Positions 16,843 to 54,340 of a stretch of 64,000 nucleotides of DNA are shown here, one piece after another; within the stretch, counting starts at the first letter, position 1; each line of letters starts with the position of its first letter. Below the pieces are notes generated by a model. That model was not told the DNA's origin. It ran no database searches and saw only the letters and a list, made by a program, of their open reading frames with translations. Origin of the DNA: an uncultured Myxococcales bacterium (GTDB lineage: Bacteria > Myxococcota > B64-G9). The DNA lies in contig CAZXHT010000002.1 of the NCBI GenBank assembly GCA_964640665.1, forward strand, positions 38,567-102,566, in the 5' to 3' direction. Made by a program: the position numbers and the translations under genes.

Positions 16843-16866
16843 AAGACGCTCGGCGGAAGGTGCGAT

Positions 16867-17445
16867 ATGGCGCTTTTAAACATCGATCCCCTTGTCTTGA
16901 TCAGGATCCTCGCCGGCACGGAGGTAGAGGGAGAGAAGTTCTCCCTGATGCAGATTCATCCAGGCACGATCATCTGGACTCTGATCATCTTCGCCGTGTT
17001 GTTGATCGTTTTAAGCAAGTTGCTCTGGAAGCCCATTCTCAAGGCGGTCGGCGAACGCGAAACCAGGATCCGCGAGGCGCTCGAAAAGGCGGATCAGGCA
17101 CAGGCGGATGCCCATAAGGCACTTGCCGGCCAGAAAGACATGGTCGAAAAGCAACGCAAGGAGGCTGCCGAGTTCATGACCCGGGCCAAGGATGACGCCC
17201 GGCGCTCGGGAGATGAAATCATCGATAAGGCCCGGCGGGAGGCGAGCGAGCAAACGGAGCGTGCAAGAAGACAGATTGAAGAAGAGAAAAACCGGGCAAT
17301 CGAAGAGGTTCGAACCCATGCCGTCGACCTGGCGCTGCAGGCGGCCGGTCACCTGCTTGGCAAGAGCCTGGACGAAGCCAGCCAGCGCGGCATCGTCAAG
17401 GACTACATCGACAATCTGCCTACTCAGCTCAACAGGCGTAACTGA
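16867..17445 (+). CDS. atpF: F0F1 ATP synthase subunit b
   Basis: 192 aa; single N-terminal TM then long charged coiled coil (EAxxxAExIxxARxEA). Confidence 0.8.
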   Translation: MALLNIDPLVLIRILAGTEVEGEKFSLMQIHPGTIIWTLIIFAVLLIVLSKLLWKPILKAVGERETRIREALEKADQAQADAHKALAGQKDMVEKQRKEAAEFMTRAKDDARRSGDEIIDKARREASEQTERARRQIEEEKNRAIEEVRTHAVDLALQAAGHLLGKSLDEASQRGIVKDYIDNLPTQLNRRN

Positions 17446-17495
17446 CAACATCTTGACTTGCGGGCAGCGCTTAAAGCAAATATCATCTCGCCTGC

Positions 17496-18422: not shown

Positions 18423-18427
18423 TCGAA

Positions 18428-19555
18428 ATGGCCGGAAGGAAAAGCCAGCCCAGGCTTTACACCCTGATGGACGAAGCCATCGAAGAGGGGGTTTTCCCCG
18501 GGGGGACGCTGCTGATACGTCGGGGTAAAGAGACGCTGCACGAGTCGGCCCATGGATTGACATCGTTGGTGCCTAAAGGCCAACGGGTGGAGATTGATAC
18601 GATCTATGACCTGGCATCGCTGACGAAAGTGCTGGTAGTGACACCGCTGATCGTCGATCTCGTAAAACGCGGCGTGATGAAGCTGGAAGATCCCGTCGCA
18701 CGTTTAGTGCCGCTCTTCGACGGCGCGGGCCGGGAGAAAATTACGATCGAGCATCTTCTTGAACACACCAGTGGTCTGGCCGGCTGGCGTGCCTATTTCG
18801 AGGAACTGGCCGCCTGTGGGGGAGGGAGACTTGTGTGTGAGTTTGCCGGGAGGGATGCCGTCAGGTCGATGCTGGCGGCCGAGGACCTGATTTCGAAGCC
18901 AGGCCTGCAAGCGCTATACAGCGATCTGGGTTTCATATTGCTCGACTGGGCCATTGAAAAGGCCACCGGCAAAACACTCGACCTGCTCTTCGAGCAAAGA
19001 GTCGCACGTAAACTGGGGCTCGACGATCTGTTCTTCGTCGACCTGAAGAACAAACGCAAGGCTCGCTTGGCCAGGAAGGGACGAAAAATTGCGGCAACCG
19101 AGCGGTGTCCGTGGCGGGGCCGGACACTGGTGGGCGAGGTTCACGACGATAACGCCTATGCCATGGGCGGCGTCAGTGGTCATGCGGGACTATTCGGCAC
19201 AGCTCGAGATGTGGCCCGACTGGCCGGAGTCTGGCTGGCGGCCTACCGCGGCGAATCAACAATCTTCGATAGTCGGCTCGTTCGCCGGTTCTCGCGACGC
19301 ACGAGCGTGCCTGACTCGACCCGCGCGCTGGGATTCGACACGCCCTCTGAGAAAAATTCCCAGGCCGGCAGGCTTCTGGGACGCGAGGCCATCGGGCACA
19401 CGGGTTTCACGGGCACGTCCCTTTGGATCGATCTGAGGCGTGAACTGATTATCGTTCTGCTGACCAACCGCGTGCACCCCAGTCGTGACAACGACGCTAT
19501 CCGGCGATTCAGGCCGCGCTTGCACGACGCGGCGGTGGAGGAATGCGTTCGATGA
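18428..19555 (+). CDS. Serine hydrolase, beta-lactamase/AmpH-like (class C fold)
   Basis: SxxK motif in IYDLASLTKVLV, 375 aa, beta-lactamase family signature; adjacent to ldcA and mpl. Confidence 0.75.
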   Translation: MAGRKSQPRLYTLMDEAIEEGVFPGGTLLIRRGKETLHESAHGLTSLVPKGQRVEIDTIYDLASLTKVLVVTPLIVDLVKRGVMKLEDPVARLVPLFDGAGREKITIEHLLEHTSGLAGWRAYFEELAACGGGRLVCEFAGRDAVRSMLAAEDLISKPGLQALYSDLGFILLDWAIEKATGKTLDLLFEQRVARKLGLDDLFFVDLKNKRKARLARKGRKIAATERCPWRGRTLVGEVHDDNAYAMGGVSGHAGLFGTARDVARLAGVWLAAYRGESTIFDSRLVRRFSRRTSVPDSTRALGFDTPSEKNSQAGRLLGREAIGHTGFTGTSLWIDLRRELIIVLLTNRVHPSRDNDAIRRFRPRLHDAAVEECVR

Positions 19556-38192: not shown

Positions 38193-38298
38193 AGCTTCTA
38201 CCTCTGGAATACGCTGACTCCAGCCTTGCGGGCGGAGTTCGGCTTCTCGTCGGGGATGGTCCAGGCAAAGGCCAAAGAGCAGTCGAGCACCAATTTCA

Positions 38299-38553
38299 TC
38301 AGAAGCGGCGTCCTTCATCAATCAACTTACTAATACTCAGGCCGGGTCCCACCCTTTTCCTGATCTCGCGGAACTTTTCCAGGATTTCGGCGAAGTCCGG
38401 TTCATGGTCATCTTCATTATAAGGAACCAGGCGGGCCACGACCTTGCCGCGACGGCGGATGACGAAGGAACGTCCCTTCTCGGTTTCGCGGAGAAGCTCG
38501 GCCAGGCGGGTCTTGGCTTCGAAGGAACCAATTTCATCTTCATGGACAACCAA
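38299..38553 (-). CDS. Phd/YefM-family type II antitoxin (orphan, C-terminally extended)
   Basis: N-terminal IGSFEAKTRLAELLRETEKGRSFVIRRRGKVVARLVP matches Phd/YefM fold consensus; no cognate toxin ORF adjacent. Confidence 0.6.
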   Translation of the reverse strand: MVVHEDEIGSFEAKTRLAELLRETEKGRSFVIRRRGKVVARLVPYNEDDHEPDFAEILEKFREIRKRVGPGLSISKLIDEGRRF

Positions 38554-38781
38554 CTGGAATACCTCCTTGTTGTCTTCTGTAAACCAGTTTATTAAATCAG
38601 TAGAATAACGTCAAGGGAAGAAGGGGACGGCGGAGAAGATCATCACGTGGAAAAGCACCTCGACTCAGATGATTTATTGCCATTTCCTGAAATAGTATCG
38701 GATCTTCTTAATCGACATGTTTCTTGAAGGTCGATGTAGATATTGGTACACTGTTCTTGTAAAAAGATATATTAGCTCTCA

Positions 38782-39426
38782 TTGACACCTCATGGGCTGG
38801 TATTCACGATGAACGACACGCAGATTCGGGAAGGCCTCCATAAAAAATTACTGAAGAGGCATCATATTTGTAAGGATACACTCGTTGTCAACGAGTTGGG
38901 CCTGAGACATGGTACTAACCGGGCTGACATTGTTGTAATAAATGGGAACCTTGTCGGATACGAGATCAAGAGTGACAAAGACTCATTGCACCGACTCAAA
39001 GAACAAGTACCCGCGTATACCTCGGTTTTTGACTGGTCTTCGGTGGTGGTTGGCACTCGACACAAGACGGTGATTGAATCGTTGGTGCCTGACAACTGGG
39101 GAGTAATAGTGTCATACCAAGGTCCCAGAGGCGGTGTCCACTTTGAAACGCTACGTGTGGCTCGCAGGAACCAAGCAGTGGATCCTTTCGCGATTGCACA
39201 ACTACTCTGGCGAGATGAAGCCGTGGCTATCCTTGCGGAGAAAGATGTGCCAGCGCGAGTACTGCGACAGTGCCGTTCTGTGCTCTACAAGCATCTCGTG
39301 GAAATGCTCAGTCTATCGGAATTGCAGAGTCGGGTCAGGGCTTTCCTGAAGAACCGTAGAAACTGGCGACATCCCGCACAACCTTTTCAAGATGGTGGTT
39401 TGTGCCGACCCACCGCCAAGTTGTAA
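38782..39426 (+). CDS. PD-(D/E)xK-type nuclease-fold protein (MmcB/sce7726-like)
   Basis: Core RADIVVINGNLVGYEIKSDKDS gives D...E-x-K arrangement typical of restriction-endonuclease-like fold; 214 aa. Confidence 0.5.
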   Translation: MTPHGLVFTMNDTQIREGLHKKLLKRHHICKDTLVVNELGLRHGTNRADIVVINGNLVGYEIKSDKDSLHRLKEQVPAYTSVFDWSSVVVGTRHKTVIESLVPDNWGVIVSYQGPRGGVHFETLRVARRNQAVDPFAIAQLLWRDEAVAILAEKDVPARVLRQCRSVLYKHLVEMLSLSELQSRVRAFLKNRRNWRHPAQPFQDGGLCRPTAKL

Positions 39427-40453
39427 GGTTGCCCGTTGTTTCAGTGCCGCCTGCGCAGCCTTTAATGTACTCGTCCCCTTTTGAGAAACTGTCCCCACAG
39501 TAGCCTTGTGAATCCATGACTGTTCGGCAATGGCCTTTGTACTGCCCGAATTTATGGTCTCGGACATTCGGTCCTTTGACCACAAACCAGGCATCATCGA
39601 TTGCGTACCTGATGCTTGCCGATGGCTTCACCTTTCGCATGTCCACCAACAGAACCTGCGGGTGGCTGATTGTATAGTCTCCAAAGGTGGGGATTCGAGA
39701 ACTACCAAGCCTGCTGGCTACTTTCTTGTAAAGAAGCCATTCATAGCGTTCAATAACTGAAGGACTATGCTTCACTTCTGCCATTGACTGTGGAAACGAG
39801 GCACCTAGAAGGATGAATGTTCTCCACTTCTTCAGGTATGGTATTCGTTCGATGATCGCTTGCACGAGTTTGCTGAAGCCTTCAAGAGGGAGGAAATTGG
39901 GTGACCCCAAGTCGAGGACGAGGTCACACTCATTTGCCCTCATCTCCATGAGCTTCAATAACTTATTGAGGTTGACCTCAAGGCTTGATCTGTTGGCTAG
40001 TTCAATTCCTATACGTAGACAGAGACCTTTTTTATCCTTGCTGATAGCACGCTTGACTGAACTCTGGTAGCGATGATCTCTCTCCAGCCCAGTTACAGGT
40101 ACCGCATGACATTTCTCAGCTCGGAGTTCATTGAAAACATAGTCGACCGGGTGCCTTCGGCTCTTCATCATTGTCTTCGAATCCAACAGATTGAGATCTA
40201 CAAAGCAAGGCTGTTGTCCCCACTTTGTACTGACTCGCTTGGCGAAGGGTTCCAGGTGCTCATCGACTGTCCTCTTGTCAGACTGTGCCTCAAAATCGAA
40301 ACCGATTTCCGGAACCTCTATGAACGGAGTAAGTGAACGCTTTGCTGACTTGGATAGCCGCAGCACGGCCTGATACTCCCCCTGTTTCCATCGGAGGCAC
40401 GGAACATAATGTTCATGGTCGAATCTCATCGTAAACCTCCTTTCACTGTCCAA
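39335..40453 (-). CDS. Uncharacterised 372-aa protein (last gene of HTH/ImmA operon), C-terminal Cys cluster
   Basis: Long ORF with 11-bp overlap with upstream XRE/ImmA gene; C-terminal HCx9CGDx9C pattern; no recognisable catalytic motif. Confidence 0.5.
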   Translation of the reverse strand: MDSERRFTMRFDHEHYVPCLRWKQGEYQAVLRLSKSAKRSLTPFIEVPEIGFDFEAQSDKRTVDEHLEPFAKRVSTKWGQQPCFVDLNLLDSKTMMKSRRHPVDYVFNELRAEKCHAVPVTGLERDHRYQSSVKRAISKDKKGLCLRIGIELANRSSLEVNLNKLLKLMEMRANECDLVLDLGSPNFLPLEGFSKLVQAIIERIPYLKKWRTFILLGASFPQSMAEVKHSPSVIERYEWLLYKKVASRLGSSRIPTFGDYTISHPQVLLVDMRKVKPSASIRYAIDDAWFVVKGPNVRDHKFGQYKGHCRTVMDSQGYCGDSFSKGDEYIKGCAGGTETTGNLTTWRWVGTNHHLEKVVRDVASFYGSSGKP

Positions 40454-41735
40454 ATCGGACCTCGGTGAATTGCTTCCTCACCTCGCCTAGTCCCACCATG
40501 TCTTTGAGGATTACGTAATTGTTCGCCTCTTTTCTTATCCTCCCTGCGATGATAGCGGTGCCTATCTTGAGCTTAATCGCTGCTTCCCTGATGGCCTCCT
40601 CGGTTCTAACATATCGAGCCAGAGCTGTTTCCCACATGTCATCAGGGATAAGCATATTCCCAGCGAAGTCATTGGCCTCCCGCTCCACGTCATCACCCTC
40701 TATGTCGAGGTCATCGAAGATGTCTTCAATCTTCCCTTTGCGTAGATGCTTGACCACATGGGCCAACTCGTGAAAAAGGACAAACCAAAAATTATCAAGT
40801 CTATCATACCGCAACGTCATACCGATAACTGGGTGTCCGTCTCTAAGAAGAAAAGTAGCTCCATCCAGATATGTCCTTGGAAGATGAGGTTCAAAAACAA
40901 GAGAGATGCCAGATTTTGCCAAGTACTCCTTGGCCAATTGTGGCCCATTAGTTTGTTGACTCATCTGCGCCAGCTCACGAAACCACCTAACTGACAGTCC
41001 CTTGCGTTCAAAATCGCCTACGTCTTTCTCCATGCCAGAGAGCAGGAGAATCCGACATTGCCAAGCGATGAGAGCATAGGTGTCCATATTTCTGCCCATA
41101 CGGGCTCGCTGTCGGAGAAGGGCTGGCTGTCGCAAGGGCATTGCCTTCTCGATGAAATCCTTCACAAGTTCATCTGCACATGACATGGCCGTCGACAGTG
41201 AGCCTTTGAAGTCCTCAAACCAGTTCCGACGATACATTTCTTTTACTGGGAACAAACTCCAATCCAGTTCTTTGGGATCGCCTTTGTATGCCCTGGTAGG
41301 AGTCCCAACAATTTCGGCAACTTCACTGATGTTTAGGTTAAGGGTCCTCGCCACTTGTGTGATCCTCTGCAAGCTTGCTGAGGAATAATATTCAGCCTCA
41401 TACCTTTGGACTTGCTGCTCCTTCACGCCGAGCATTTCAGCCAGTTCTCGTTGGGATAGACCCTTGGCAATCCTCGCTTGGATGAGTACCGTTGGCATTT
41501 GTTCTAGAGACGCCGCACTTAATACCGTGATCGCACCGGATTCCAGTGCTTCATATTCACGAATTTGATCGGAGAGGCTCAAGACTTCACTTTCCAATGC
41601 GCTAAATTCGGCCTTTGCTAGAACTGCTGAACCCGTGCGTTGTGCAGCTTCCTTGATGTCAAAGGCCTCTACCGCATCTTTGAGTTTCCGATACTGAGCC
41701 CTTGTTATTCTATACTGCCGGTCATTAGTAATCAT
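40443..41735 (-). CDS. XRE-family HTH domain fused to ImmA/IrrE-family zinc metallopeptidase
   Basis: HTH_XRE (IAKGLSQRELAEMLGVKEQQVQRYE) at aa ~95-150; HEXXH (FHELAHVV) plus EREANDFAGNMLIP downstream, diagnostic of COG2856 ImmA/IrrE. Confidence 0.8.
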   Translation of the reverse strand: MITNDRQYRITRAQYRKLKDAVEAFDIKEAAQRTGSAVLAKAEFSALESEVLSLSDQIREYEALESGAITVLSAASLEQMPTVLIQARIAKGLSQRELAEMLGVKEQQVQRYEAEYYSSASLQRITQVARTLNLNISEVAEIVGTPTRAYKGDPKELDWSLFPVKEMYRRNWFEDFKGSLSTAMSCADELVKDFIEKAMPLRQPALLRQRARMGRNMDTYALIAWQCRILLLSGMEKDVGDFERKGLSVRWFRELAQMSQQTNGPQLAKEYLAKSGISLVFEPHLPRTYLDGATFLLRDGHPVIGMTLRYDRLDNFWFVLFHELAHVVKHLRKGKIEDIFDDLDIEGDDVEREANDFAGNMLIPDDMWETALARYVRTEEAIREAAIKLKIGTAIIAGRIRKEANNYVILKDMVGLGEVRKQFTEVRFGQ

Positions 41736-41749
41736 TCAGTCCTCCATCC

Positions 41750-42229
41750 TCACATGAGTCGGACACGGACAATGCCTTTCTGCTTGCCCGTGTGCCTGTC
41801 CTTCTGGAAATACTCCACGAAGGTTCTTCGTCCATTCGCAAATGCGCTCGATGGGAATAACTCACCCTCGAATTTGTCCTTCTGGTTTTTTCGGCTGTCG
41901 CTGAAATCTAGTAGGACCGGGTCTAACTTCTTGGCGTTGACACCTACGGGGTCCCAGCAGGCATCGTAATCACCCGGTTCCGGCTTCCCGGTAACAAAAC
42001 TTCCGTCGATGTAGACCGTTTTACACCCAGCTCTCTGAAGGGCCTCTATACTTGCTTTCAATCCTGTAAAAAGCATTTGGCGTCGTGGCGTCGTGGCAAA
42101 TACCTTCTTAACCTCATCAAGTGTTGCATCGTGTACCCCAGGAGGCAGGACCGGCCAAGGACTCTTGATGTCAACCAGCTCAGGAATCATGACACAATTA
42201 TATTGTTGTGTTGATAAATGATCCAGCAA
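41750..42229 (-). CDS. Putative minimal nucleotidyltransferase (pol-beta superfamily)-like protein
   Basis: IDGSFVTGKPEPGDYD fits hG[GS]x9-13DhD NTase motif; 159 aa; first gene of operon, 14 bp upstream of XRE/ImmA gene. Confidence 0.4.
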   Translation of the reverse strand: MLDHLSTQQYNCVMIPELVDIKSPWPVLPPGVHDATLDEVKKVFATTPRRQMLFTGLKASIEALQRAGCKTVYIDGSFVTGKPEPGDYDACWDPVGVNAKKLDPVLLDFSDSRKNQKDKFEGELFPSSAFANGRRTFVEYFQKDRHTGKQKGIVRVRLM

Positions 42230-42487
42230 AATGTCATAAAAAAATCAAAATGCCATGAGGCGGGAGTTGTTCTTCGAACGAGGCGTGTCAATAAACATAT
42301 TTGTATTCGATCAAGCCAGCGATCGGGCGCGTCGAATTCACCGTTGTCGTCGGGTCGGGCCGCAATCTGCACACCGGGGACACTCCCGATAGCCACCGGC
42401 ACATCGGAAGTCGGCAAGCCACAGACACGCACCGCGACCCAGTGCCGCCCGTGCCACCACCGCCACAGAACGATGGGGTGTTTGGTC

Positions 42488-44107
42488 TTACGTTGTCAAT
42501 CGCTTCAAATTGTCAACTGCTTGGACAACGAGCTCATCTGGAAAAGCGCCACGACTCAGCAATTCAATTGCATTTGTTGTCTTGCACAGTCCGGGTTTCA
42601 GGCGATAGTCGAAAAGGATGTCACTGCCCTGATAATGCTCTGAGAAATGGTACCTTTCAAAATTGTGATCAACCAACGTGCCAATCGCAAGGTCATGGGT
42701 GGCAACAATAACAAGGTTGCTCTTTGCCAAGTATTGGATGACTGCCGCAGCAGCCGCGACTCGCTCCACGGGATTTGTCCCCCTGAACAATTCGTCAACA
42801 ATGAAAAGGCAGTTGTTTCGGCTTGTGCTATACCCAACCAGTTTCTGGATGACATCAACCTCTACCGCAAACAAGCTCTTGCCGTTTTCAATGTCATCTG
42901 CAATGTCGATTGAAGTTTTAATGTAAAACAGACAGGCTTCGTACTTGCGTGCCACAGACGTATTGATGGTTTGAGCAAGAATCGCGTTCAATGCGACAGT
43001 TTTCAAAAACGTGGTCTTCCCGGACATATTGGAACCGGTAATCAACATGCTTGATCCATGGATTTCGAATGAATTGCCGATCGCCCGGTCTAGCCTCGGA
43101 TGAAGAAGGTTCTCGGCCTTGATCAGGCAAGGTGTATCGACAAATTCTGGTTTGCACCAGACGGGCTGGCTTCTGCGGTATGATGCAATTGAAATGCAGG
43201 CATCGATCAAGCCGATGGATCGAAAGAGAATGCGAAGATGCTTCTGGCTGTTTTCAATTTGTTCCCGGAGGGAGCCATAAGCGAGAACTTTTCTGAGTGT
43301 CAGGATGTTGAGATAGTCCAGCAGTTGTGTCGGATCTCTGAGCTGTATATACCTGCATTTTCTGGCGAGCGGGAGACACTGGTTGATGCTGGCGGAAAAT
43401 TCGACTTCGGAGGGAAAGTTTTTCCCGATAAGTTCGTGCAGATTTGCGCTCGATTGTATGAGTCTACCGAGACAGGAGAGGACATCGATTTCGTAGCCAA
43501 AAACCTCTTCGTACTTGTAGTGAACCATTAAGTTTATTAAAAACATCACAAGGGCGGCAGCCCAAAACAGAGGCTTGAAGACGGCCACAACAACGAACAC
43601 AATCAGGGCGATTGTACAAAGCCTGACCACTGTAATTGACAACGGAGGCTTGGGGAGGTTCTTCCAGATAAGCCTCGGTAGAGAAAATGAAGTATCATCG
43701 TCAAGGGAGAGAAGCTCAACTTGTGCTTTCTCGCGCAATTCAGCGTCGGTTTCAAACAACTCGACAAGTGGCTCCGGGACAGTTATCGCCTCTGAGTTGA
43801 GGCATGGCGTGACGAGAGTCTGATAGAGGTACTGCGATCCAGGGCTCGAGGTTGCGTGGTCGATAGATCCAAACACAAAATTGATATCAAGATCAGACCT
43901 TGTCCTACTGTCCAGCGAGAATCTGTTGAAGTCATCCGGGTTCTCTGAATCGATCTGTTCATAGAATTTGCACTTCTCGATTGGCCGCGGCGAACTCCGG
44001 CGATTTCCCCATTCCCGGCGCAGCCTCTTGAGTTGTTCCGCCTTTTTCGAAAAGATGCAGATTCGAGAGAGAACCGATCTGAAATGAGCCGCCGCGTTGG
44101 TGAGCAT
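42488..44107 (-). CDS. Membrane-anchored MutS-domain-V-like ABC ATPase
   Basis: Walker A ITGSNMSGKTTFLK, Walker B LFIVDELFRGTN, VIVATHD; two predicted TM helices (aa ~165-215); no mismatch-binding N-domain. Confidence 0.7.
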   Translation of the reverse strand: MLTNAAAHFRSVLSRICIFSKKAEQLKRLRREWGNRRSSPRPIEKCKFYEQIDSENPDDFNRFSLDSRTRSDLDINFVFGSIDHATSSPGSQYLYQTLVTPCLNSEAITVPEPLVELFETDAELREKAQVELLSLDDDTSFSLPRLIWKNLPKPPLSITVVRLCTIALIVFVVVAVFKPLFWAAALVMFLINLMVHYKYEEVFGYEIDVLSCLGRLIQSSANLHELIGKNFPSEVEFSASINQCLPLARKCRYIQLRDPTQLLDYLNILTLRKVLAYGSLREQIENSQKHLRILFRSIGLIDACISIASYRRSQPVWCKPEFVDTPCLIKAENLLHPRLDRAIGNSFEIHGSSMLITGSNMSGKTTFLKTVALNAILAQTINTSVARKYEACLFYIKTSIDIADDIENGKSLFAVEVDVIQKLVGYSTSRNNCLFIVDELFRGTNPVERVAAAAAVIQYLAKSNLVIVATHDLAIGTLVDHNFERYHFSEHYQGSDILFDYRLKPGLCKTTNAIELLSRGAFPDELVVQAVDNLKRLTT

Positions 44108-44119
44108 TGTTTTCCCCTT

Positions 44120-45559
44120 TCAGTGCCAGAAGCCTATCCCGGCTCCGATATCGAGGTAGCCCGGTGCCCCGTCCACCGTGAGCGAGGCTCGCAGGTCGAA
44201 GGGATCCGTGTAGCCGAAGAGGTCCCACCTGAAAAGGCGCAGCTCCAGGCCGCCCGTGCCATGGGGTCGTAATGGTACGCCGGCGTAGCGGGGTGGCTCG
44301 AGGTAGAAGCCGGCTCTCAACTTGAGGCGATCGGGCCAGATTTCTGTTTCGGCTCCGAGCCTGAAGCCGAAAGAAAGGCCGTCACCGGACGCCCGCCTCT
44401 TCTGCTCGACGAATGAGTCGATGCCGACGCCGTCTGTGGTGCCGCCGATGATGAAAACATCCGCGCTCATAAGCAAATATGATTTGGGAAGAGACTCGTA
44501 CTCCTTGCGTCGCTCGTGCTCGATCACCGCTTCCCGTACATCCAACGCCTTTTCGAGCAAGAGCTCCTCCGCCTCGCGAAGCTTCTTCTCCCGAGCCCAC
44601 CAGATCTCGTCACGAGGCATGTCTAAAAGGTTGGGGCACTCGTCCGACGTAGTGATCCCTTCACGATCCGGTTTCTCCAGGGCCTGCTGGGCCACCGCGC
44701 GTTTGCAGCGCGCGCTTTCGATATGCTTGCGCAGATCCTGCTGCGGATCTGGTGGAGCCGACCAGACACGGTTCATCGGCCGCGGGCCGAACTGCCAGGC
44801 GAAACCCAACTGGACTTCCCAGGGCATGTGAACTCCGCGCGGCAGCACAAAGTTTTTGACGTAGCTCGTGCCGTCGCGCACCTCGACCCCCGGGGTCTTG
44901 TCCGGCCCGGACTCGACCGGCCCGCGGCCGGAAACTCCCAGCCGCCAGGGCATGTCGGCCAACTTCAAGAGCACGCCTCCTTCGACGCCGGCTCCGGTGA
45001 AATGCACCAAAGTGGTGTCGTCGGCCAGTTTGAGATCCAGGTCGGCGACCCGCGTTCCCAGCCCCACGATCAACTGCCCGCTAAAGAAGGCATAGGCCAC
45101 ACCGGCATGGCTTTCTATCAGGAAGATGTTAATCGGTTCTCCCGCCGAGCCGGTATTGTAGATCTGCAGTCGGGTGTCTGCCCCGATTCCCAAACTGCCG
45201 AACTGCAGGCGCAAACCCAGGCCGAGAAATGAGAACTTCTCAACTCCGATGCCCGAACCGTTGTTGAAGAAATCATCGAGCCCGAAGATGCCGGGCGCGC
45301 AGTAAGACAACGACAGACCGTACGAGAACCAGGAGAACTCGTAGGGCGGTCGCGAACCAAAAGATGCCGGATTGAAGTGTGCCCCATCGATATCCTCGGC
45401 CAGGGCGGTGTAGGCCCCGCCCATTCCCACAACGCGGCTCGAACCCAGCACCGGCCCGGTCACGGCGTCTATCTCGAAGTCGTTATGCGCGAAGATATCC
45501 TGGGCGGTCACCGGGCACGATAGTGCCACAATGAGCAAGATGGAGGACATGACGCGCAT
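44120..45559 (-). CDS. Putative outer-membrane beta-barrel protein
   Basis: Signal peptide LLIVALSCPVTAQD, alternating amphipathic beta-strand pattern, Gly/aromatic-rich, C-terminal GIGFWH. Confidence 0.45.
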   Translation of the reverse strand: MRVMSSILLIVALSCPVTAQDIFAHNDFEIDAVTGPVLGSSRVVGMGGAYTALAEDIDGAHFNPASFGSRPPYEFSWFSYGLSLSYCAPGIFGLDDFFNNGSGIGVEKFSFLGLGLRLQFGSLGIGADTRLQIYNTGSAGEPINIFLIESHAGVAYAFFSGQLIVGLGTRVADLDLKLADDTTLVHFTGAGVEGGVLLKLADMPWRLGVSGRGPVESGPDKTPGVEVRDGTSYVKNFVLPRGVHMPWEVQLGFAWQFGPRPMNRVWSAPPDPQQDLRKHIESARCKRAVAQQALEKPDREGITTSDECPNLLDMPRDEIWWAREKKLREAEELLLEKALDVREAVIEHERRKEYESLPKSYLLMSADVFIIGGTTDGVGIDSFVEQKRRASGDGLSFGFRLGAETEIWPDRLKLRAGFYLEPPRYAGVPLRPHGTGGLELRLFRWDLFGYTDPFDLRASLTVDGAPGYLDIGAGIGFWH

Positions 45560-45569
45560 CGGCCTCTCC

Positions 45570-46542: not shown

Positions 46543-47670
46543 TCACTCGGGCTTTCCTAAAACAGCCTCGAAGAGATTCTCGTCCATCAAGGCACCCTTG
46601 GCTATACGCCTGCGATACTCGATGAAATCGATCGTGTCCCGGCCGGTCTGTTTGCGGGTGGCGAAGGCGTTGAAGCCCAGGAAGGCCTCCCCCATCATGT
46701 TGGCATCCAGCCAGTGTCGGTTGAAAACCTTGGCCTGGTCCCAGAAGAACCTCTTCTTGGCGCGCACCGAATCGATTGACATCTGCAGGCATCCGGGGAA
46801 GAGGTTGGTCAGGTGCCAGATCATGCCGTCCACCGCCTCGTCCAATAGTGAAAAATCAAACTGACAACTTTTGGCAAGCTCACGGGCCGCCTTGGCCTCG
46901 GCCCCGCTCTTCATCTCGCCGTAGACGATCTCTCCGTCATTGATGTAGTTGTCGGTCATAACGGCCGGGTTACGGATGAAGCGGCCGTCCTTTTTGAGCA
47001 CCGGCGCCACCTTGGTGACCAGCCCCTTGACCTTCATCTTGTATGCAGACCACAGCTCGCACGAGATGCAGTTCCACATGGCGTCTTCCATGGTCAAGAA
47101 CCAGGGTAAAAAGTCGCTCGAACCGCCCACGGGAGCCGATCCGTGCCGGGTACCGGCCTGTCCGAAGATTGCCGTATCAGCGGCCACCGCCAGATCGCAG
47201 GCCATCCCGATCTCCTGGCCGCCTGCCACTCGCATCCCGTTGACCCTGCAGATGACCGGCTTCTTGCAATCGAGAATGGAATCGACCATGCCGTTGAACA
47301 GGTCCATGTACTCGCCGTACTCATGGGGTCGCTTGGAGTAGTATTGCGCGTACTCTACTGTGTTGCCGCCGGAGCAAAAGGCCCGCTCTCCCGCCCCGGT
47401 GAAGACGACCGCCACCACGCTCCGATCACACGAGGCTTCCTTGAAACCGGCGATGACGCCCTTAACCATCTCGGTGGTGTAAGAGTTGTATTGCTCGGGG
47501 TTGTTGAGAGTGATCCGGGCGACGAAGAGATCGGCCTGTTTTTGCCCCTGCGGATCCGCCAGCGGAATCTTCTCGTACATGGTGCAGGGCGGTTCCTTGC
47601 CCCAGTATTCGCCCTTGAACAAACCGTGGTCTTTCAACTCGTCATCCCTGGTCAACCAATCGAGCGCCAT
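46543..47670 (-). CDS. Crotonase-fold enoyl-CoA hydratase/hydrolase (BamA/Oah-like)
   Basis: FTGAGERAFCSGGN crotonase oxyanion motif; 376 aa from ATG 47670 with AAGGAGGAAAC RBS; ORF track N-terminal 251 aa Arg/Ser-rich extension judged spurious. Confidence 0.75.
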   Translation of the reverse strand: MALDWLTRDDELKDHGLFKGEYWGKEPPCTMYEKIPLADPQGQKQADLFVARITLNNPEQYNSYTTEMVKGVIAGFKEASCDRSVVAVVFTGAGERAFCSGGNTVEYAQYYSKRPHEYGEYMDLFNGMVDSILDCKKPVICRVNGMRVAGGQEIGMACDLAVAADTAIFGQAGTRHGSAPVGGSSDFLPWFLTMEDAMWNCISCELWSAYKMKVKGLVTKVAPVLKKDGRFIRNPAVMTDNYINDGEIVYGEMKSGAEAKAARELAKSCQFDFSLLDEAVDGMIWHLTNLFPGCLQMSIDSVRAKKRFFWDQAKVFNRHWLDANMMGEAFLGFNAFATRKQTGRDTIDFIEYRRRIAKGALMDENLFEAVLGKPE

Positions 47671-47818
47671 GTTTCCTCCTTCGTAAGAGACACCATCATG
47701 TAGCCCAAAGAGCCGATCATTGCAAGAGCGGGAGCCGTCCAAAATTTTCCAAGCGAAAATCACGCTTGGCCTAAATCTTTTCTTTTTAACCCCGCCGATT
47801 GGTGATAAGCTCTCGGAC

Positions 47819-50800
47819 ATGCTGCGAGGATGTGGGTGTTTACATCCGGTCCGATGGACCGGTTGCAGAACGTTACTGTTCTTGCACCTGGTGTCTTGCG
47901 CGAATCCGGTCTTGGCCGGGACGCGGGAGGCGGGGCCGCTTATCGATTTGCCCGGCAAATTGACTTCGGCGGCCATGGAGATCATCGACGGAGAACTCGA
48001 AGAACTTGGCAAGGATCCCGACTGGGATGCCCTGCACGCCTTCCTGGCCTCGCAGCCCGCTTCGCCCGTGGCCCGGTACGCGCGGGCCTCCGCTGATTTG
48101 AAACGCTGCGCCGTTTGGGACGGGGAACGCGGCCTCGAGACGCTCGCGGCCTTGCGCAAGGAAGCCGCCCAGCGGGGTGATCGGGTGCTGGCCGCACGGC
48201 TGCTTCTGGCCATCGGCCGCGGGCAACTCGCCCTGCGACACAACGCCCGGGCGCTGTCCTCCCTCGAGACCGCGGCAGCCGAGCTGCGCAGGTTGGGAGA
48301 TTCCCGGGGGCTGGTAGAGGCGCTTTTCCAACTCAGCAGCGGTCTGATCAACAATTCCCGCCGGCCGCGGGACGCCTTGAAATACATCAACGAGTTGCAG
48401 GTGCGGGCCGCGCGCCTCGACATGCGCGATTATGAACAGTTAGCCGCGCGTCTCTACGATGAATGGCGCAAGGGAATAGACGAAGTTGACGACTACTTCG
48501 GCCGGGCCCGTAACCGCTTGCAGTACTTCCCGCCGGCCCTCGGCATTTCCGAAGACGCGGACCTGGTGGCTTTTACTAACGGTGTGCTGGTCATGAACGG
48601 AGACACCGACGATCAGGTAGTGTCCGCCCGTCCCGAATTCGTGTCCTTCGACGGCCTGTTTACCCGCAAGTTGAAGCTGCCGGGCGACTCGCTGCAAATA
48701 CGCGGATCGCTGGTGGACGATCGCGGCCGGCTGTGGGCCGCAACCAACCGTGGCCTGTACCGCTACGACGGGGAGGGTTTCGTACACCTGTACAATCCCG
48801 CTCTTGCAGACGAGGAGGGCAACGATCTCGCAAGACAGGTAGCACGCGAGCGCGGCCGGATCTCGACTATGGAAGTTGCCTTATCTTCAAATATCGTAAA
48901 CGAGATAAAACAGGGCCCGGATGGTCGTTTCTATCTGGCAACAGCATCCGGGGCGTCTGTTTGTGATCGTGGCTTCAAGAAATTTCAGTATTTCACGCCG
49001 AAAAACGCTCCGCTGCCCGCGTCTGTCGAACGCATCGCCAAGGCTGCGGACGGATCGTTAGTGATTGCCTGGAGAGACGCCTACGCAGTGCGCCTGCCCG
49101 GGGGCGCCTGGAAAAGACGCGCCTTCGAGTTTCCCAAGGCCGCCGGCCGCCCGCACGGTAAGCTTTTTGGTCTTCTGGTCGACTCATCCGGGCACCCCTG
49201 GGTGCACGGTCTGGGGGGCGGACAGGAACTCTCCGGAACACGAGTTGTGCGCTATGTTGATCGACGCTTTTCGGCCATGACCCGCAACGTCAACCACGTG
49301 CTCAAGGCGAGTGATGGCGCCTATTGGTTCGCTTCAACCGATGGTCTCTGTCGCCAATCGGGTGCGCATTGCGACACGCTCAACGCCGGCCGCTGGATGC
49401 CGGCCGAGTGGTCGCTGGATCTGTTCGAGGGGCCGCCAGGAAACGTGTGGGTTTCTGTCTACCAGGGGGGGCTGATTCGCATCATGCCTCCCAACTACCG
49501 GCACTACGGGCTTGCCGAGGGTTTTCGCCAGCCGGTCAACGAAACAATCCGCGAACTTGCGGGTTACCTGTATTTCACAAACGGAGAGGGGTTGACGCGA
49601 CTGGATCCCGCCAGCGGCCGCATAGACAACTTCGCCTCCGAGGCAGAGGGCATACCCTTAGGAGAGCTGAAGATATCGGAGAAGTTGAGTGATGGGCGGC
49701 TGGCCCTGGCCGGTCCGGACATACTGGCGCAAAAGGCGATCGTCCTCTTCGATGGGCGGCATGGCCGCCTGGTGGACGAACACAATGGATTGCCGGCCGA
49801 AAGCCTGATCTCCTTTTGCCAGGACGAGGCCGGCAAGCTCGAGGTCGCCTACGGCACGGGTTTGTGGCAACTCGACCTGCAGACGCTGCGTGCTCGGCCG
49901 GACCCCGACTGGCGAGCGATCGAGGGCATACAGATTGTGGATCTTGCCTGCGCCGCCGACGGATCCGCCTGGGTGTTGACCCCTGATGCCGTCTATCGAC
50001 GGGATAGCAACGGCGTGCGACACATCGATCTCGGGGGTATTGGTTTGCACGGCAAGCCGCGCCAACTGATTGCGTCGGTGCGGGCCGGGGTCTTCGTTTT
50101 CGGACAGCGCCAGATATTGAACCGCCGAAATGACGCCTGGAAACAGATACCGGTCGATGCCGACAAATTCGACTTCCGCGTCCGCGACGTGGTCGAAGAC
50201 GATCGCGGCCTGCTCTACTTCGCCACCGAAAGCGGCGTTTTCGCCTTCAACGGTGAGAACTGGACCCGCCTGAGCGCGCGTGACGGATTGGTTTCCAGGA
50301 CAGCTTTCCAAATGTTGGCGCGCGGGGACGGGTTGTGGATATCCGGAGACGGAGGCGTCACTTGCTGGAACTGGCCTGAACAGCAACCGCCGGAGACGTT
50401 TCTGTTGTTCAGAGGCGATGCTTTCTTCGCCGATCCCGACGGGAGAGCGCTTCGCTTCCGGGCTTCAAACGGAATAGAAAAGGAAGGTTGGGTGCAGCTA
50501 CGCGGGACGGCCGGCCTGTTCGAGCTGCCCGAAAAGCAGGCCGGCTCGTTTTTAACGCCTGCCAGACGAACGGGTCTCCTGTTGACTGATAACGCAGGTG
50601 CAGGCGATTCGACGGCCTCCGGGATGAAGGTAGTAAGGTCGAACAGGCTTGAGTTTTTCGCTTCGGCCGGTGTGCCTTTCATGGACGATACACCCGATGA
50701 GTTCTCGTACCACTACCGGGTCGACGCGGGTGCCTGGTTTCCCGCCCGGGGAAGGAAGATTGTTGTCGGCGACCTGAAAGATGGAGTGCACCGGGTGGAG

Positions 50801-53800
50801 ATCCGCGCCACGGATCCACGCCTGGTTTCGGATCCCACACCGGCTCGATGGTCCTTCATGGTCGAGACGCCGATGTCCCCCTGGCTGCCGGCCGCCTTCG
50901 GTCTTTCGGCCGGCTTGCTTTTGTTCTTTGCGCGCCGACGCTGGATGTGGTTGCTGCAACGCTTGATGCACAGGCACTTCCATCCTCTCGACCCGGCATC
51001 ATTCGCCCCGCAGCGGCCGGCCAGCGGGCCCGATTTCATTGGTCGTGGGGAGCAGTTGGAAACTCTTTTGCGCGTGGCCGCGGATACCGGGGGGGTGGCC
51101 GTGGCATGGGGGGAGAGAGGAACAGGAAAACACTCGTTCATGCTGCGGCTCGCCGCGCAGCTGCGCCAGCGACACGTACATGTCGTCGAGATGGATCTGG
51201 CCGTTACGACTGCCGGCGGCGACGTCGCCAACCTGGTTGGCAGCCTGGGCCGCACCTTGCTGGACGTTTTAGAGTCAGACGGAGTTCGGATCGATTTGGC
51301 GCCGGCCATGGCAGGGGAATCGCTGTTATCCTTGCCGGGCAGCCTTGGCGGGGAGTCACCCGCCAAGGACATGCCGTCTCCACCCGGATCGTCGGCCTCG
51401 GGTGATAATCCGTTTGAGGTATTGAGTCGGACATTGCGGCATCTTGATCAGCAGGCGCCGGGTGAACGAGTGGCCTTCCTGATTGACAATGCCGAGGTGC
51501 TCGGCGTGGCCCTCGATTCGGACGCCGGCTATGGCTCTTACTTGTTTCCCTTTATGCGCTCGCTGGTTCAGGAACGTTCCTGTGTAACCATGGTGCTGGC
51601 CATCGAGGGCCGCTGGTTCAACCTTTCGCGGATTTACAGGCAGCTGTTTGCCTTCGCATCTCCGCTGGCCATCGATCGTCTCTCGCGGGAAGAAAGCAGC
51701 CGCCTGCTTACGGGCAGGCTCAAGAATCAGGCAATCGTATCCGAGCGGGATCTCGGGCGGCTTGTGGATCTGGCCGGCGGACATCCTTTCTTGCTGCAGC
51801 AAATTGGCAAACATCTGGTTGATGAAATGAACCGCCGGCGGACCAACGTGTGCTCGGGCAAGCTCGTCAAGGGGATATCGACCGTCCTGGTCGATGAAGT
51901 CGACAGCCAGCTGCAACGGATGTTTTTCGATCTTTCGCGCGAGGAAAAACTCGTGGTGACGGCCTTGTGCACAGGCGACCGTCGCGCAAGCAAGCTGGAC
52001 ACGATTGCGGCCCGTCTCGCGGAGGCCGGCGGCAAGTTGCTGTACGAGGAAATCCGCCGGGCCGTTTTGTCGCTCGCCAAGGACGGCACGCTCTTGAAAG
52101 ACGAGGATTACTTCTCCCTGCAAGGTGACCTGTATCGCAGCTGGGTGCATGCGCACCACTCTTTAGCCTCTGTGTTGGAGGAGTCGCATGACTACGTGGG
52201 CCACTACCAGCTCGTCGAAAAGCTGGGCTCCGGCGGCATGGGAGTAGTTTACAAGGCACGCAATCTGGTAACCGGTGCCACGGTGGCACTCAAACTGCTG
52301 CGGGCCGAGCTGTCGGAAAAGAAGCGTTCCCGGCGCCGTTTTCTGCGCGAAGCCAGACTGGGAAAGAGCATTCGGCACCCCAATATAGTGCGCATTCTCG
52401 ATTACGGAGAGCAGGCCGGACGACTTTACCTGGCCATGGAGTTCGTGGACGGCAAGACCTTGACCCTCTGGACTCGCAAGGCCGGCGGCCTGTCGGCACA
52501 GACAGTGTTGGAAATAGGCCGCCACCTGTTGTCGGCGCTGGTTGCCGTCCACGAGGTGGGGATCGTGCACCGTGACGTGAAAAGCGACAATGTCATGGTG
52601 ATAAGCGCGAAGGGCAACTCTATAAAGTTGATGGACTTCGGCCTGGCGGTGGGCAAGGACGTCTCTCGCATGACCCGCGCCGGCTCGTTGCTGGGCACCG
52701 TCGCCTACATGTCGCCGGAGCAGGCGAGGGGCAAGGTGGTTGACGCCCGTTCGGATCTCTATTCACTGGGGGTGGTACTGTATGAACTTTGTGCCGGCGC
52801 ACCGCCTTTTGCCGGCCCCGATGCCGCGGTGCTGCATTCTGTGATATACGATCTGCTCCCGCCGCTTGATGAGCGGGTTAAAAATATTCCTGCTGAGCTT
52901 TCGGCCTTCATCGGCAGGCTGCTCGCCAAGAATACCGACCAGCGTCCATCCAGTGCCCGCGAAGCTCTCGAGCAGCTCAACGGTCTAGCCGAACGACTTG
53001 GATCTTCCGGAGAAAACCTGTTCATGGGCGAGGCGGCGGCTGATGGCCGAACCGATCGGGGCACGACAAGTGGCATTACATCCGGGACAGAAGTGACCTC
53101 ACACGCACTGGAAACGCTCAAGTCACAGAGCATCTTGTTGTCTTCGCTGTCGACGGCCACAAAGGAATCTATCTCCTCGCTGGCGGACGCCACCCACGAT
53201 GCCGCCCGGCTGTTGCTATATCGCATCTCGGCCGATGTGGCTCGTGGCTCGATCGAAGGCGGCGTCTTGAGAGATTGCCTCGAACAGGTTTGCGACACGC
53301 TCGAGGCGAACCGCGGCCTGGTGGCCCTGGGGAGCGATGATGGAAAGTTCGAATGTGTAGCGTCCTTCAACCGTGATGTAGAACAGATTGAGAAGCTTCC
53401 GGTCTTGTTCTCATTGTTTCACCAGTGTGTAGGCAAGCAGAGCGGTCTCCTGTACACGGCCCCGCATGGTTCTGTCGAGGATGGAATGGGCACCGCCGTT
53501 TTCGCACCGCTCTGGGCCGCGGACAAGATCCTTGGCGCTTTCATGGTTGAACGTAGCGGAGCCGAGGCGCGTCCATTCGATTTTCATAGCCTGGAGTTGA
53601 TGGCAGGCGTCGGCTACCTGTTGGGACTCGGACTGGAACGCGAGAGGCTGTACAAACAGGTGCTGAATCAGGAACGCCTGGCCGCGGTGGGACACATGCT
53701 GGCCGGGGTGGCGCATGATATGCGTTCTCCAATGGCTGTCATTTCCGGCTACGCAGAGTTAATTACGTTTGAAAAAGACTCTTCCAATCGGGAGAAGAAC

Positions 53801-54340
53801 TGCGCCGTTATCGTGCGCCAGGTGGGAGAGATGAACCACATGATCGGCAATCTGCTGGCTTACGTTCGCGGGGACACGCAACTCAATCCCGCCCAAATCC
53901 GGGCAGAAGAACTCGCCGTGGAGATCGAGGAAACCTTCCGGCCGCAATGCGAGCCGCGGGGCATCGAGTTGAACATCAGCGCCGGGGAGGGGCCGGCGCG
54001 GGTCGATGTCTCCCGAACCAAGCGCATCATCTACAACCTGGGCAAAAACGCCGTGGAGGCCCTCGGTGAATCCGGCAAATTGGAGATACGCCTTGAGAGC
54101 CGGGACAACGGACTCGAAATCAGGATCCGCGACAACGGGCCTGGAATCCCAACCGAGGTGCGTGAGCATATGTTCGACCCGTTCTTTACAAGCGGCAAGA
54201 AAGGAGGAACCGGTCTTGGCCTGGCGATCGTGAGTCGCTTCATACACGACCAGGCCGGGTCGATATCCACACACTGTGGGGAAGGTGGCGGCACGACCAT
54301 GATTGTCCACATCCCCGATGTAACCAGCCGTAAAAGCTAA
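47819..54340 (+). CDS. Multidomain sensor kinase: TPR-like + beta-propeller/Y_Y_Y - TM - P-loop ATPase - Ser/Thr protein kinase - GAF - histidine kinase (HisKA+HATPase_c)
   Basis: Reg_prop/Y_Y_Y repeats (~48.7-50.86 kb), TM helix (~50.87-50.94 kb), Walker A GERGTGKHS (~51.11 kb), STK motifs GSGGMGVVYKA / HRDVKSDN / DFGLA / SPE (~52.2-53.0 kb), GAF (~53.2-53.65 kb), H-box AHDMRSP and G2 box GTGLGLAIV (~53.7-54.3 kb); start set at ATG 47819 (track start 47720 is upstream extension). Confidence 0.85.
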   Translation: MLRGCGCLHPVRWTGCRTLLFLHLVSCANPVLAGTREAGPLIDLPGKLTSAAMEIIDGELEELGKDPDWDALHAFLASQPASPVARYARASADLKRCAVWDGERGLETLAALRKEAAQRGDRVLAARLLLAIGRGQLALRHNARALSSLETAAAELRRLGDSRGLVEALFQLSSGLINNSRRPRDALKYINELQVRAARLDMRDYEQLAARLYDEWRKGIDEVDDYFGRARNRLQYFPPALGISEDADLVAFTNGVLVMNGDTDDQVVSARPEFVSFDGLFTRKLKLPGDSLQIRGSLVDDRGRLWAATNRGLYRYDGEGFVHLYNPALADEEGNDLARQVARERGRISTMEVALSSNIVNEIKQGPDGRFYLATASGASVCDRGFKKFQYFTPKNAPLPASVERIAKAADGSLVIAWRDAYAVRLPGGAWKRRAFEFPKAAGRPHGKLFGLLVDSSGHPWVHGLGGGQELSGTRVVRYVDRRFSAMTRNVNHVLKASDGAYWFASTDGLCRQSGAHCDTLNAGRWMPAEWSLDLFEGPPGNVWVSVYQGGLIRIMPPNYRHYGLAEGFRQPVNETIRELAGYLYFTNGEGLTRLDPASGRIDNFASEAEGIPLGELKISEKLSDGRLALAGPDILAQKAIVLFDGRHGRLVDEHNGLPAESLISFCQDEAGKLEVAYGTGLWQLDLQTLRARPDPDWRAIEGIQIVDLACAADGSAWVLTPDAVYRRDSNGVRHIDLGGIGLHGKPRQLIASVRAGVFVFGQRQILNRRNDAWKQIPVDADKFDFRVRDVVEDDRGLLYFATESGVFAFNGENWTRLSARDGLVSRTAFQMLARGDGLWISGDGGVTCWNWPEQQPPETFLLFRGDAFFADPDGRALRFRASNGIEKEGWVQLRGTAGLFELPEKQAGSFLTPARRTGLLLTDNAGAGDSTASGMKVVRSNRLEFFASAGVPFMDDTPDEFSYHYRVDAGAWFPARGRKIVVGDLKDGVHRVEIRATDPRLVSDPTPARWSFMVETPMSPWLPAAFGLSAGLLLFFARRRWMWLLQRLMHRHFHPLDPASFAPQRPASGPDFIGRGEQLETLLRVAADTGGVAVAWGERGTGKHSFMLRLAAQLRQRHVHVVEMDLAVTTAGGDVANLVGSLGRTLLDVLESDGVRIDLAPAMAGESLLSLPGSLGGESPAKDMPSPPGSSASGDNPFEVLSRTLRHLDQQAPGERVAFLIDNAEVLGVALDSDAGYGSYLFPFMRSLVQERSCVTMVLAIEGRWFNLSRIYRQLFAFASPLAIDRLSREESSRLLTGRLKNQAIVSERDLGRLVDLAGGHPFLLQQIGKHLVDEMNRRRTNVCSGKLVKGISTVLVDEVDSQLQRMFFDLSREEKLVVTALCTGDRRASKLDTIAARLAEAGGKLLYEEIRRAVLSLAKDGTLLKDEDYFSLQGDLYRSWVHAHHSLASVLEESHDYVGHYQLVEKLGSGGMGVVYKARNLVTGATVALKLLRAELSEKKRSRRRFLREARLGKSIRHPNIVRILDYGEQAGRLYLAMEFVDGKTLTLWTRKAGGLSAQTVLEIGRHLLSALVAVHEVGIVHRDVKSDNVMVISAKGNSIKLMDFGLAVGKDVSRMTRAGSLLGTVAYMSPEQARGKVVDARSDLYSLGVVLYELCAGAPPFAGPDAAVLHSVIYDLLPPLDERVKNIPAELSAFIGRLLAKNTDQRPSSAREALEQLNGLAERLGSSGENLFMGEAAADGRTDRGTTSGITSGTEVTSHALETLKSQSILLSSLSTATKESISSLADATHDAARLLLYRISADVARGSIEGGVLRDCLEQVCDTLEANRGLVALGSDDGKFECVASFNRDVEQIEKLPVLFSLFHQCVGKQSGLLYTAPHGSVEDGMGTAVFAPLWAADKILGAFMVERSGAEARPFDFHSLELMAGVGYLLGLGLERERLYKQVLNQERLAAVGHMLAGVAHDMRSPMAVISGYAELITFEKDSSNREKNCAVIVRQVGEMNHMIGNLLAYVRGDTQLNPAQIRAEELAVEIEETFRPQCEPRGIELNISAGEGPARVDVSRTKRIIYNLGKNAVEALGESGKLEIRLESRDNGLEIRIRDNGPGIPTEVREHMFDPFFTSGKKGGTGLGLAIVSRFIHDQAGSISTHCGEGGGTTMIVHIPDVTSRKS

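Follow-up and report, generated by a model that had tools for sequence, protein, structure and literature searches.

A 64,000-nt window of contig CAZXHT010000002.1 (GenBank assembly GCA_964640665.1), from an uncultured Myxococcales bacterium (Myxococcota; B64-G9), contains an inserted island of 5,493 bp (positions 38623–44115 of the window; GC content 0.49) that is absent from two relatives and carries five genes. Four of these form a cassette. A DUF6932 gene (41750–42190), a gene encoding a fusion of an Xre-type helix-turn-helix (HTH) domain with an ImmA/IrrE (M78) metallopeptidase (40443–41735) and a Beta family gene (39335–40429) follow one another on the minus strand, and a P4-cII-like/sce7726-family gene (38809–39426) lies convergent to them on the plus strand. 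The fifth gene encodes a MutS-related ATPase and makes up a single-gene unit at 42469–44113 on the minus strand (open reading frame, ORF, 42488–44107, 539 aa), with a spacer of 175 bp between it and the cassette (42296–42470). On the left the island adjoins a resident Phd/YefM antitoxin gene that lies outside it (38299–38553, minus strand), and on the right an outer-membrane-protein-like (OMP) gene (44120–45559, minus strand), the stop codon of which precedes the MutS-like ATG by 12 nt. The genes around the island have ordinary metabolic and envelope functions.

The interval 38560–44115 had a GC content of 0.489, against 0.585 ± 0.025 (minimum 0.507) in 474 other 5.5 kb spans of the window, and a sliding GC profile gave 0.43–0.53 in the interval and 0.59–0.66 in the flanks. 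The G+C content of third codon positions (GC3) was 0.50–0.56 in the five island genes versus 0.71–0.77 in eight flanking genes, and tetranucleotide usage correlated with the rest of the window at 0.32–0.39 in the island and at 0.85–0.97 elsewhere, the replication-origin end excepted. Two of the features by which genomic islands are recognised, deviant base composition and codon usage (here GC, GC3 and tetranucleotides) and an empty site in close relatives, were found. The relatives are two Myxococcota metagenome-assembled genomes (MAGs), L001 and L002, detected in a scan for which the flanking OMP protein served as query and each species was represented by a single genome. In L001, which differs from the window by a synonymous divergence (dS) of 0.11–0.16 in core genes, the counterparts of window positions 38231–38622 and 44116–45507 (L001 11832–11440 and 11438–10047) are contiguous, and this alignment resolves the junction to the base, with the island edges at 38622/38623 and 44115/44116. 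The base-level alignment of the window with L001 revealed no target duplication at the insertion. Searches for direct or inverted repeats at the boundaries returned only short matches at chance level, plus 5 nt at the ends, GGGGA...TCCCC. There was no tRNA or tmRNA gene in the whole window, no integrase or transposase gene in the island or the adjoining flanks and no Rfam family in the island at E ≤ 1, and a scan for promoter and terminator consensus sequences did not rise above shuffled sequence.

An earlier note on this DNA had reported the drop in GC content and the loss of third-position G/C bias, both borne out by these figures, and the lack of an integrase, a tRNA gene or direct repeats, with which the searches of the flanks, the window and the boundaries, respectively, agree. 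The empty site that it proposed to look for exists, and neither of the outcomes it named as fatal to an insertion, an unremarkable composition or conservation of the genes in synteny throughout the lineage, was obtained. Its right boundary (44115) was exact and its left boundary (38560) lay about 63 bp too far left. All five island ORFs are intact, catalytic motifs included. Because of this, and because the composition is unameliorated and the island is absent from a relative at a core dS of only 0.11–0.16, the island is intact and recent, and the note's alternative of an old, decayed insertion lacks support. There is hardly any doubt that foreign low-GC DNA has been inserted here, and that this insertion is real, recent and bounded precisely. 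A small accessory block gained recently at a variable place in the chromosome is in itself ordinary; what it carries is an undescribed variant that links two known defence systems, together with a roaming MutS-like gene of an unusual sort.

The DUF6932 gene occupies the first, or 'A', position of the cassette and encodes 146 aa from the ATG at 42190 (the ORF opens with a TTG at 42229). The protein matched PF22014 (7.9e-36) and the PADLOC candidate PDC-M63A, a G-S...D-x-D motif is conserved, and the structure model most resembles the MNT minimal nucleotidyltransferase, so that the protein is predicted to be an MNT-like minimal nucleotidyltransferase. A permissive Pfam scan for nucleotidyltransferase families found nothing, and no mention of DUF6932 was found in the literature searched. 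A library of 1.8 billion proteins contains 1,796 DUF6932 clusters (50% identity) at E ≤ 1e-3. The peptidase protein (430 aa) matched the PADLOC model PD-Lambda-2_B (4.6e-93) and the domains HTH_3 (1.6e-11) and Peptidase_M78 (2.8e-12), and its HExxH motif, at residue 322, is kept in 120 of 120 homologues. Beta (364 aa from the ATG at 40429, the ORF opening with a TTG at 40453) matched PF14350 (1.9e-88), PD-Lambda-2_C (2.4e-57) and the PADLOC model 'beta' (1.5e-12). It is predicted to be a TIM barrel and, with conserved acidic and histidine residues, among them E18, D45, D78, D173, D251 and H346, to be more enzyme-like than a passive "antitoxin". The cII-like protein (205 aa from the ATG at 38809; TTG at 38782 opens the ORF) matched NF033832 sce7726_fam (2.4e-47), the PADLOC model 'cll' (6.3e-30) and phrog_984, and PF26915 is annotated on its homologues. 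Residues E38, R47, D49 and E61-x-K63 are invariant, and the motif D49...E61-x-K63 alone makes it a candidate PD-(D/E)xK nuclease; it had no match in Pfam, a permissive scan of nuclease families included, and no sequence match in the PDB. Sequence-profile searches of PDB chains with DUF6932, the cII-like protein and Beta likewise gave nothing significant. All of these PADLOC matches are to individual models (B, C and 'cll' each separately) and are not system calls.

Identical gene order and orientation were found in seven other contexts (L003, L004/5, L006/7, L008, L009, L010 and L030), all differing in neighbourhood. Four are metagenomic or genomic loci from different phyla. Of the others, L009 lies on a Sinorhizobium conjugative plasmid, L030 is in a prophage between the structural genes and the integrase, and L010 is on the Acinetobacter pittii NDM-1 plasmid pNDM-AP_882 (3025–6915), where the cassette adjoins a Tn7-like tnsD/tnsE and breaks off behind the peptidase gene, truncated by an IS30 element preceding blaNDM-1. 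The cassette is conserved at 53–70% identity across Planctomycetota, Sumerlaeota, Chlamydiota, Myxococcota and Proteobacteria and has a GC content of 0.50–0.59 whatever that of the host (about 0.44 to 0.65). The 3′ ends of the Beta and cII-like genes overlap by 92 bp in the window (39335–39426) and by 47–92 bp in the six complete four-gene copies with mapped gene ends, a range that becomes 41–92 bp when the Rac-type locus L011 is added, and phage P4 is the sole exception. The overlap of convergent 3′ ends suggests antisense or transcriptional-interference coupling. L011, in an Escherichia coli Rac-type prophage, contains only the beta/cII pair, which overlaps by 41 bp. Two-gene pairs of this kind, without an upstream partner and located beside hok/mok in Rac-type prophages, were present in 93 of 5,426 complete E. 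coli genomes at an identity of at least 98%.

Upstream of the cassette is a palindrome, ACACAACAATATAATTGTGT (42211–42192, minus strand), which ends one base before the DUF6932 ATG and has a −10-like TATAAT at its centre (42202–42197). The pattern CACAACA-N(3–9)-TTGTG is found in one copy at the same position in each of L003–L008 and in none of 23 other loci, and a looser form of it had two matches in the window versus 0.37 expected. In several loci, a TTGAC(A/T)-like −35 element is located 17–18 nt upstream of the −10-like hexamer. The DUF6932 ATG follows the hexamer by 7 nt, so close that a ribosome-binding site does not fit, and for this reason we infer a leaderless transcript, for which the palindrome would be a putative operator/promoter bound by the Xre domain.

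The gop, beta and cII genes of satellite phage P4 (Gop-beta-cII), reportedly the subject of work by Ghisotti in 1990, are arranged as gop and then beta, with cII convergent, and P4 cII is annotated as belonging to the sce7726 family. This system protects against lambda and P1, with Gop being toxic when Beta is missing (Rousset et al. 2022, PMC9122126), and is triggered by phage orf184 (bioRxiv 2023.04.06.535777). A Beta-family gene (PF14350 in both) and a convergent cII/sce7726 gene are shared by P4 and the cassette, but no Gop is found upstream of Beta in the window; a relationship of Gop to DUF6932 was considered and rejected as the sequences have no similarity. The cassette further differs from P4 in having the HTH-peptidase gene between the first gene and Beta and in the 3′ overlap, which is replaced in P4 by a beta-cII gap of 28 bp with a terminator, and the P4 cII carries a C-terminal extension of about 60 aa that is missing from the cII-like protein of the window.

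The second related system is PD-lambda-2 from E. coli ECOR42, in which A neutralises the toxic B and defence depends on C (Vassallo et al. 2022, PMC9519451). It is composed of a HigB-like A (PF09907), B (PF06114) and C (PF14350). Genes 2 and 3 of the cassette are homologous to B and C and, like them, share a strand and keep this order after a small first gene, an Xre-HTH plus ImmA/IrrE gene being followed downstream by a PF14350 gene. The first gene differs: it encodes DUF6932, with its predicted MNT-like nucleotidyltransferase fold, instead of a HigB/RelE-type protein, and among PADLOC models and Pfam it had no match to PD-Lambda-2_A or HigB (PF09907). The convergent cII-like fourth gene, constant in the window-type cassette, is a further difference, and when E. 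coli was searched for a cII-like neighbour of PD-lambda-2 proper, only the Rac-type beta/cII pairs were recovered. The window-type B protein is also about 30 aa longer at the N-terminus than HigB-associated B proteins. The cassette is a hybrid four-gene variant that combines B and C of PD-lambda-2 with beta and cII of Gop-beta-cII and has a first gene belonging to neither. The earlier note had described the gene content correctly, but had not recognised a defence cassette of this type.

Parts of the cassette also resemble other modules. Loci of HigB plus Xre/COG2856 (ImmA/IrrE), which are toxin-antitoxin-like, have a small gene followed by an Xre-HTH/M78 fusion, but their upstream gene is HigB and they include neither Beta nor cII. 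MNT neutralises its partner HEPN by nucleotidylylation. The DUF6932 model is closest to the MNT of such HEPN-MNT modules (for example HI0073/HI0074; PDB 8xeh), and the precedent suggests that DUF6932 could have an analogous neutralising role. In ImmR/ImmA, DdrO/IrrE and CapH/CapP, a stress or phage cue activates the protease, which relieves repression. In these systems, too, an M78 metalloprotease is paired with an Xre-type HTH (weak matches were obtained to capP and capH), but in the window the HTH and protease are fused in one protein of 430 aa.

Taken with these comparisons, the cassette can with reasonable confidence be assigned to the PD-lambda-2/Gop-beta-cII family and is probably defensive. 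The most serious competitor is that it is a selfish addiction (toxin-antitoxin) module, or a mobile-element regulator, without a role in phage defence. Its architecture is toxin-antitoxin-like, as in PD-lambda-2 where toxic B is neutralised by A, pairs of HigB and ImmA/IrrE occur without Beta or cII, and copies are carried by plasmids and prophages, on which addiction modules often occur. However, both of the characterised relatives that contain Beta protect against phages, Beta is needed in PD-lambda-2 for defence and not for neutralisation, and the conservation of four genes at 53–70% identity across phyla goes beyond the needs of a two-gene addiction module. We consider a pure addiction or regulatory role rather improbable.

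If the cassette is defensive, homology with PD-lambda-2 and P4 Gop-beta-cII would make it a toxin-antitoxin-like abortive-infection system, and a detailed mechanism can be proposed tentatively by analogy, though it is doubtful in its particulars. The HTH domain of the peptidase protein would bind the palindrome and repress the leaderless operon transcript. The peptidase would be potentially toxic and restrained by the MNT-like protein encoded upstream of it, possibly by nucleotidylylation as MNT does to HEPN. Beta would couple phage sensing to activation, and the cII-like putative nuclease would be the likely DNA-directed effector, its expression tied to that of the operon through the convergent overlap.

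The MutS-like protein matched MutS_V (3.3e-26) and, weakly, domain III. Walker A is at residue 358 and Walker B at 434, and a two-helix transmembrane hairpin is predicted at 154–197, with a transmembrane-like segment present in 118 of 120 relatives. It shares the domain V ATPase, the Walker motifs and the weak domain III with MutS1, MutS2 and KamC-type ATPases, but differs from MutS1 and MutS2 in having neither the mismatch-binding domain I nor Smr and a membrane hairpin instead. Scores against the NCBIfam models for MutS1 and MutS2 were far below the cut-offs (117 versus 480 bits and 81 versus 400). A literature search for membrane-anchored MutS-related proteins gave nothing relevant. The relatives comprise a tight group of 77–88% identity in related MAGs and a remainder at most 38% identical.

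The MutS-like gene was found in four other contexts (L012/13, L014, L015 and L025), in each as a patch with a GC content of 0.46–0.49 in a background of 0.58–0.60 and with different neighbours. Nucleotide homology between the window and L012–L015 is confined to 42469–44113, that is, from 6 nt before the ORF to 19 nt beyond it. The dS between the window gene and the copy in the L002 MAG was 0.30, compared with 0.46–1.03 for five core genes of the same genome pair, and the ratio of nonsynonymous to synonymous divergence (dN/dS) was about 0.2. The lower dS points to exchange of the gene between lineages after they split, and the dN/dS to its being under selection. L012/L013 is on another contig of the MAG that includes L002, and the MutS-like gene there is directly downstream of a HigB/HTH pair in surroundings rich in defence genes (a type I restriction-modification system with a Fic gene, an SMI1_KNR4 gene and an NYN-domain gene). 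In L014, the MutS-like gene has upstream of it a gene (7593–8932) that resembles those for class II aminoacyl-tRNA synthetases; it is split into ORFs of 185 and 253 aa and may be a pseudogene.

None of the seven other cassette contexts has the MutS-like gene and none of its other contexts has the cassette. Since each occurs elsewhere without the other, the insert consists of two independently circulating modules, and the MutS-like gene would be cargo unrelated to the cassette that came to adjoin it. The earlier note's low-GC, horizontally acquired insertion between Phd and the OMP gene is upheld by the empty site and the composition, but not as one unit. The spacer between the modules has a GC content of 0.63, is open in two frames with host-like GC at codon positions and had no match in the window, the collected loci or Pfam; it may be a gene fragment from an earlier GC-rich location of one of the modules. 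The junction inside the island was confirmed by an independent metagenome contig (L031) that is 100% identical to window positions 41977–43539 (1,563 bp).

It could still be argued that all five genes, the MutS-like ATPase included, are one functional system and that the 5.5 kb moved as a single unit. A single low-GC block downstream of the OMP gene contains all five genes, four of which share a strand, the independent contig shows that in this organism the MutS-like gene is next to DUF6932, and in another MAG the MutS-like gene is beside a HigB/HTH pair and a type I restriction-modification system. Against this stand the complete lack of co-occurrence in the other contexts, the separation of the modules by the 175 bp GC-rich spacer and by the cassette's own putative promoter/operator, and the finding that a distant MutS-like relative sits among housekeeping genes. 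A single five-gene system is therefore very unlikely.

The DNA was inserted 3 nt past the stop codon of the OMP gene, at a point 8 nt upstream of where a putative Phd promoter (38614–38586) has its −35-like element. The OMP-like gene has orthologues with 91% identity in L001 and 80% in L002. The resident Phd protein (PF02604, 1.7e-08) has 86% amino acid identity to its counterpart in L001, where it forms an intact Phd-PIN pair with a PIN (VapC-like) protein of 138 aa (11764–12180; PF01850, 1.1e-11). In the window only the antitoxin of such a Phd/VapC pair is complete. It is followed by a remnant of the PIN gene (38193–38298, minus strand) left by an internal deletion of about 310 bp; L001 11833–12142 has no counterpart, and the alignments on either side of it overlap by about 5 nt. 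The antitoxin without a toxin remarked on earlier is therefore an orphan because about 310 bp of the PIN gene was lost in the window lineage. In the more distant L002, the stop codons of the OMP and OYE genes are about 19 bp apart and neither Phd nor the island is present.

As L002 has neither Phd nor the island, L001 has Phd-PIN only and the window has the island, the events at this site are nested. The ancestral state, as in L002, is an OMP/OYE spacing of about 19 bp, and the Phd-VapC pair was the first gain, giving the state seen in L001; in the window lineage 5,493 bp then entered between the stop codon of the OMP gene and the promoter of Phd, and most of vapC was lost. The comparison of the three genomes establishes that Phd-VapC came first and that the 5.5 kb followed, together with the deletion of the toxin. 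The site, a variable tail-to-tail OMP/OYE spacer, is a repeatedly used variable spot in which Phd-VapC was itself an earlier insertion, and it provides a clean natural series of nested insertions as well as a toxin deletion that explains the orphan antitoxin. It resembles defence islands and hotspots in that toxin-antitoxin and defence-type genes are clustered at one spot with occupancy varying among relatives, but it is small and has no integrase, and the occupants are single modules instead of a large mobile element. The reverse explanation, that the relatives lost an ancestral region by precise deletion, or that the window contig is an assembly chimera, draws on the relatives being MAGs, on the lack of an intermediate state and on outer junctions supported by the window alone, but is scarcely credible given the foreign GC3 and tetranucleotide usage, the two exact deletions that loss would require to reach the 19 bp OMP/OYE spacing of L002 without Phd and the island, the location of both insert flanks on the same syntenic chromosome, the occurrence of each module elsewhere as a compositionally distinct mobile unit and the exact reproduction of 1,563 bp of the interior by an independent assembly.

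Overall, we interpret the locus as a recent composite accessory island in a variable OMP/OYE spacer about 40 kb from the origin, made up of a putative defence cassette and an unrelated MutS-like gene, with a probability of about 0.7. Several points weigh against this interpretation or against the role given to the cassette within it. A metagenome scan for intermediate states of the site returned only the same two relatives and farther ones without synteny, and no donor was found at the DNA level among plasmids and phages. The DNA probably entered through recombination that involved no dedicated integrase, in one event or in two. The relatives are MAGs, the contigs of which could in principle be mis-assembled. 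The cassette departs from PD-lambda-2 in having DUF6932 and not HigB, and it is precisely to this protein that a role has been assigned by inference. Moreover, the clone that sufficed for PD-lambda-2 to work was not long enough for a complete cII-like gene, and cII may for this reason be dispensable and not the effector.

A broader possibility, which we put forward as a speculative one, is that DUF6932/Xre-M78/Beta/cII is a distinct multi-phylum anti-phage system that unites PD-lambda-2 and P4 Gop-beta-cII in a superfamily. The core of such a superfamily would be the predicted TIM-barrel Beta and the convergent putative PD-(D/E)xK nuclease cII, with interchangeable control modules consisting of Gop, of HigB plus the peptidase or of the MNT-like nucleotidyltransferase plus the peptidase. 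The MNT-like protein would restrain the toxic peptidase by nucleotidylylation, the cII nuclease would be an overlooked effector, and the conserved 3′ overlap and the leaderless operator-promoter would act as the switch. The MutS-like membrane ATPase, for its part, may move between loci as a bare ORF. PD-lambda-2 and Gop-beta-cII are both experimentally validated defence systems and have been catalogued separately, with Beta common to the two. In the loci collected here Beta habitually has a convergent cII-type putative nuclease as its partner, and the HigB-type first gene appears replaceable by an MNT-like nucleotidyltransferase. The hypotheses raised are the operator site, the leaderless transcript, neutralisation dependent on the nucleotidyltransferase and the nuclease as effector.

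Elsewhere in the window, positions 89–8940 contain the 3′ part of dnaA, then dnaN and recF and later gyrB. The dnaA-dnaN spacer (947–1174) is AT-rich, with a GC content of about 0.40, and is a candidate oriC, the island lying about 40 kb away. The housekeeping genes near this origin have GC contents of 0.44–0.51, below the rest of the window, and the low-GC stretch at 1–3 kb, the one other outlier in composition, was rejected as a second island as it corresponds to the dnaA-dnaN-recF-gyrB origin region. A plus-strand ORF of 2,206 aa (47720–54340) combines Reg_prop repeats with AAA_16 ATPase, Ser/Thr kinase, GAF and histidine-kinase domains. The listed coordinates of this ORF overlap those of an enoyl-CoA hydratase-like gene on the minus strand (46543–48423) by about 700 bp, so that its true start is probably further downstream.

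The stretch from the Na/Ca-exchanger gene to the OMP gene is short in the window (45512–45569) and 3–4 kb longer in the relatives (L001 5795–10046, L002 6969–10041). In L001 the extra stretch, with a GC content of 0.61, contains a DAGK-like kinase gene and a gene for an S8 subtilase of 1,059 aa with Dicty_CTDC repeats. Given this native-like GC content, it is probably missing from the window lineage by deletion. In L002, an additional stretch of about 6.6 kb (12761–19364) is found between the M19 dipeptidase and OYE genes, and the whole neighbourhood is structurally variable.

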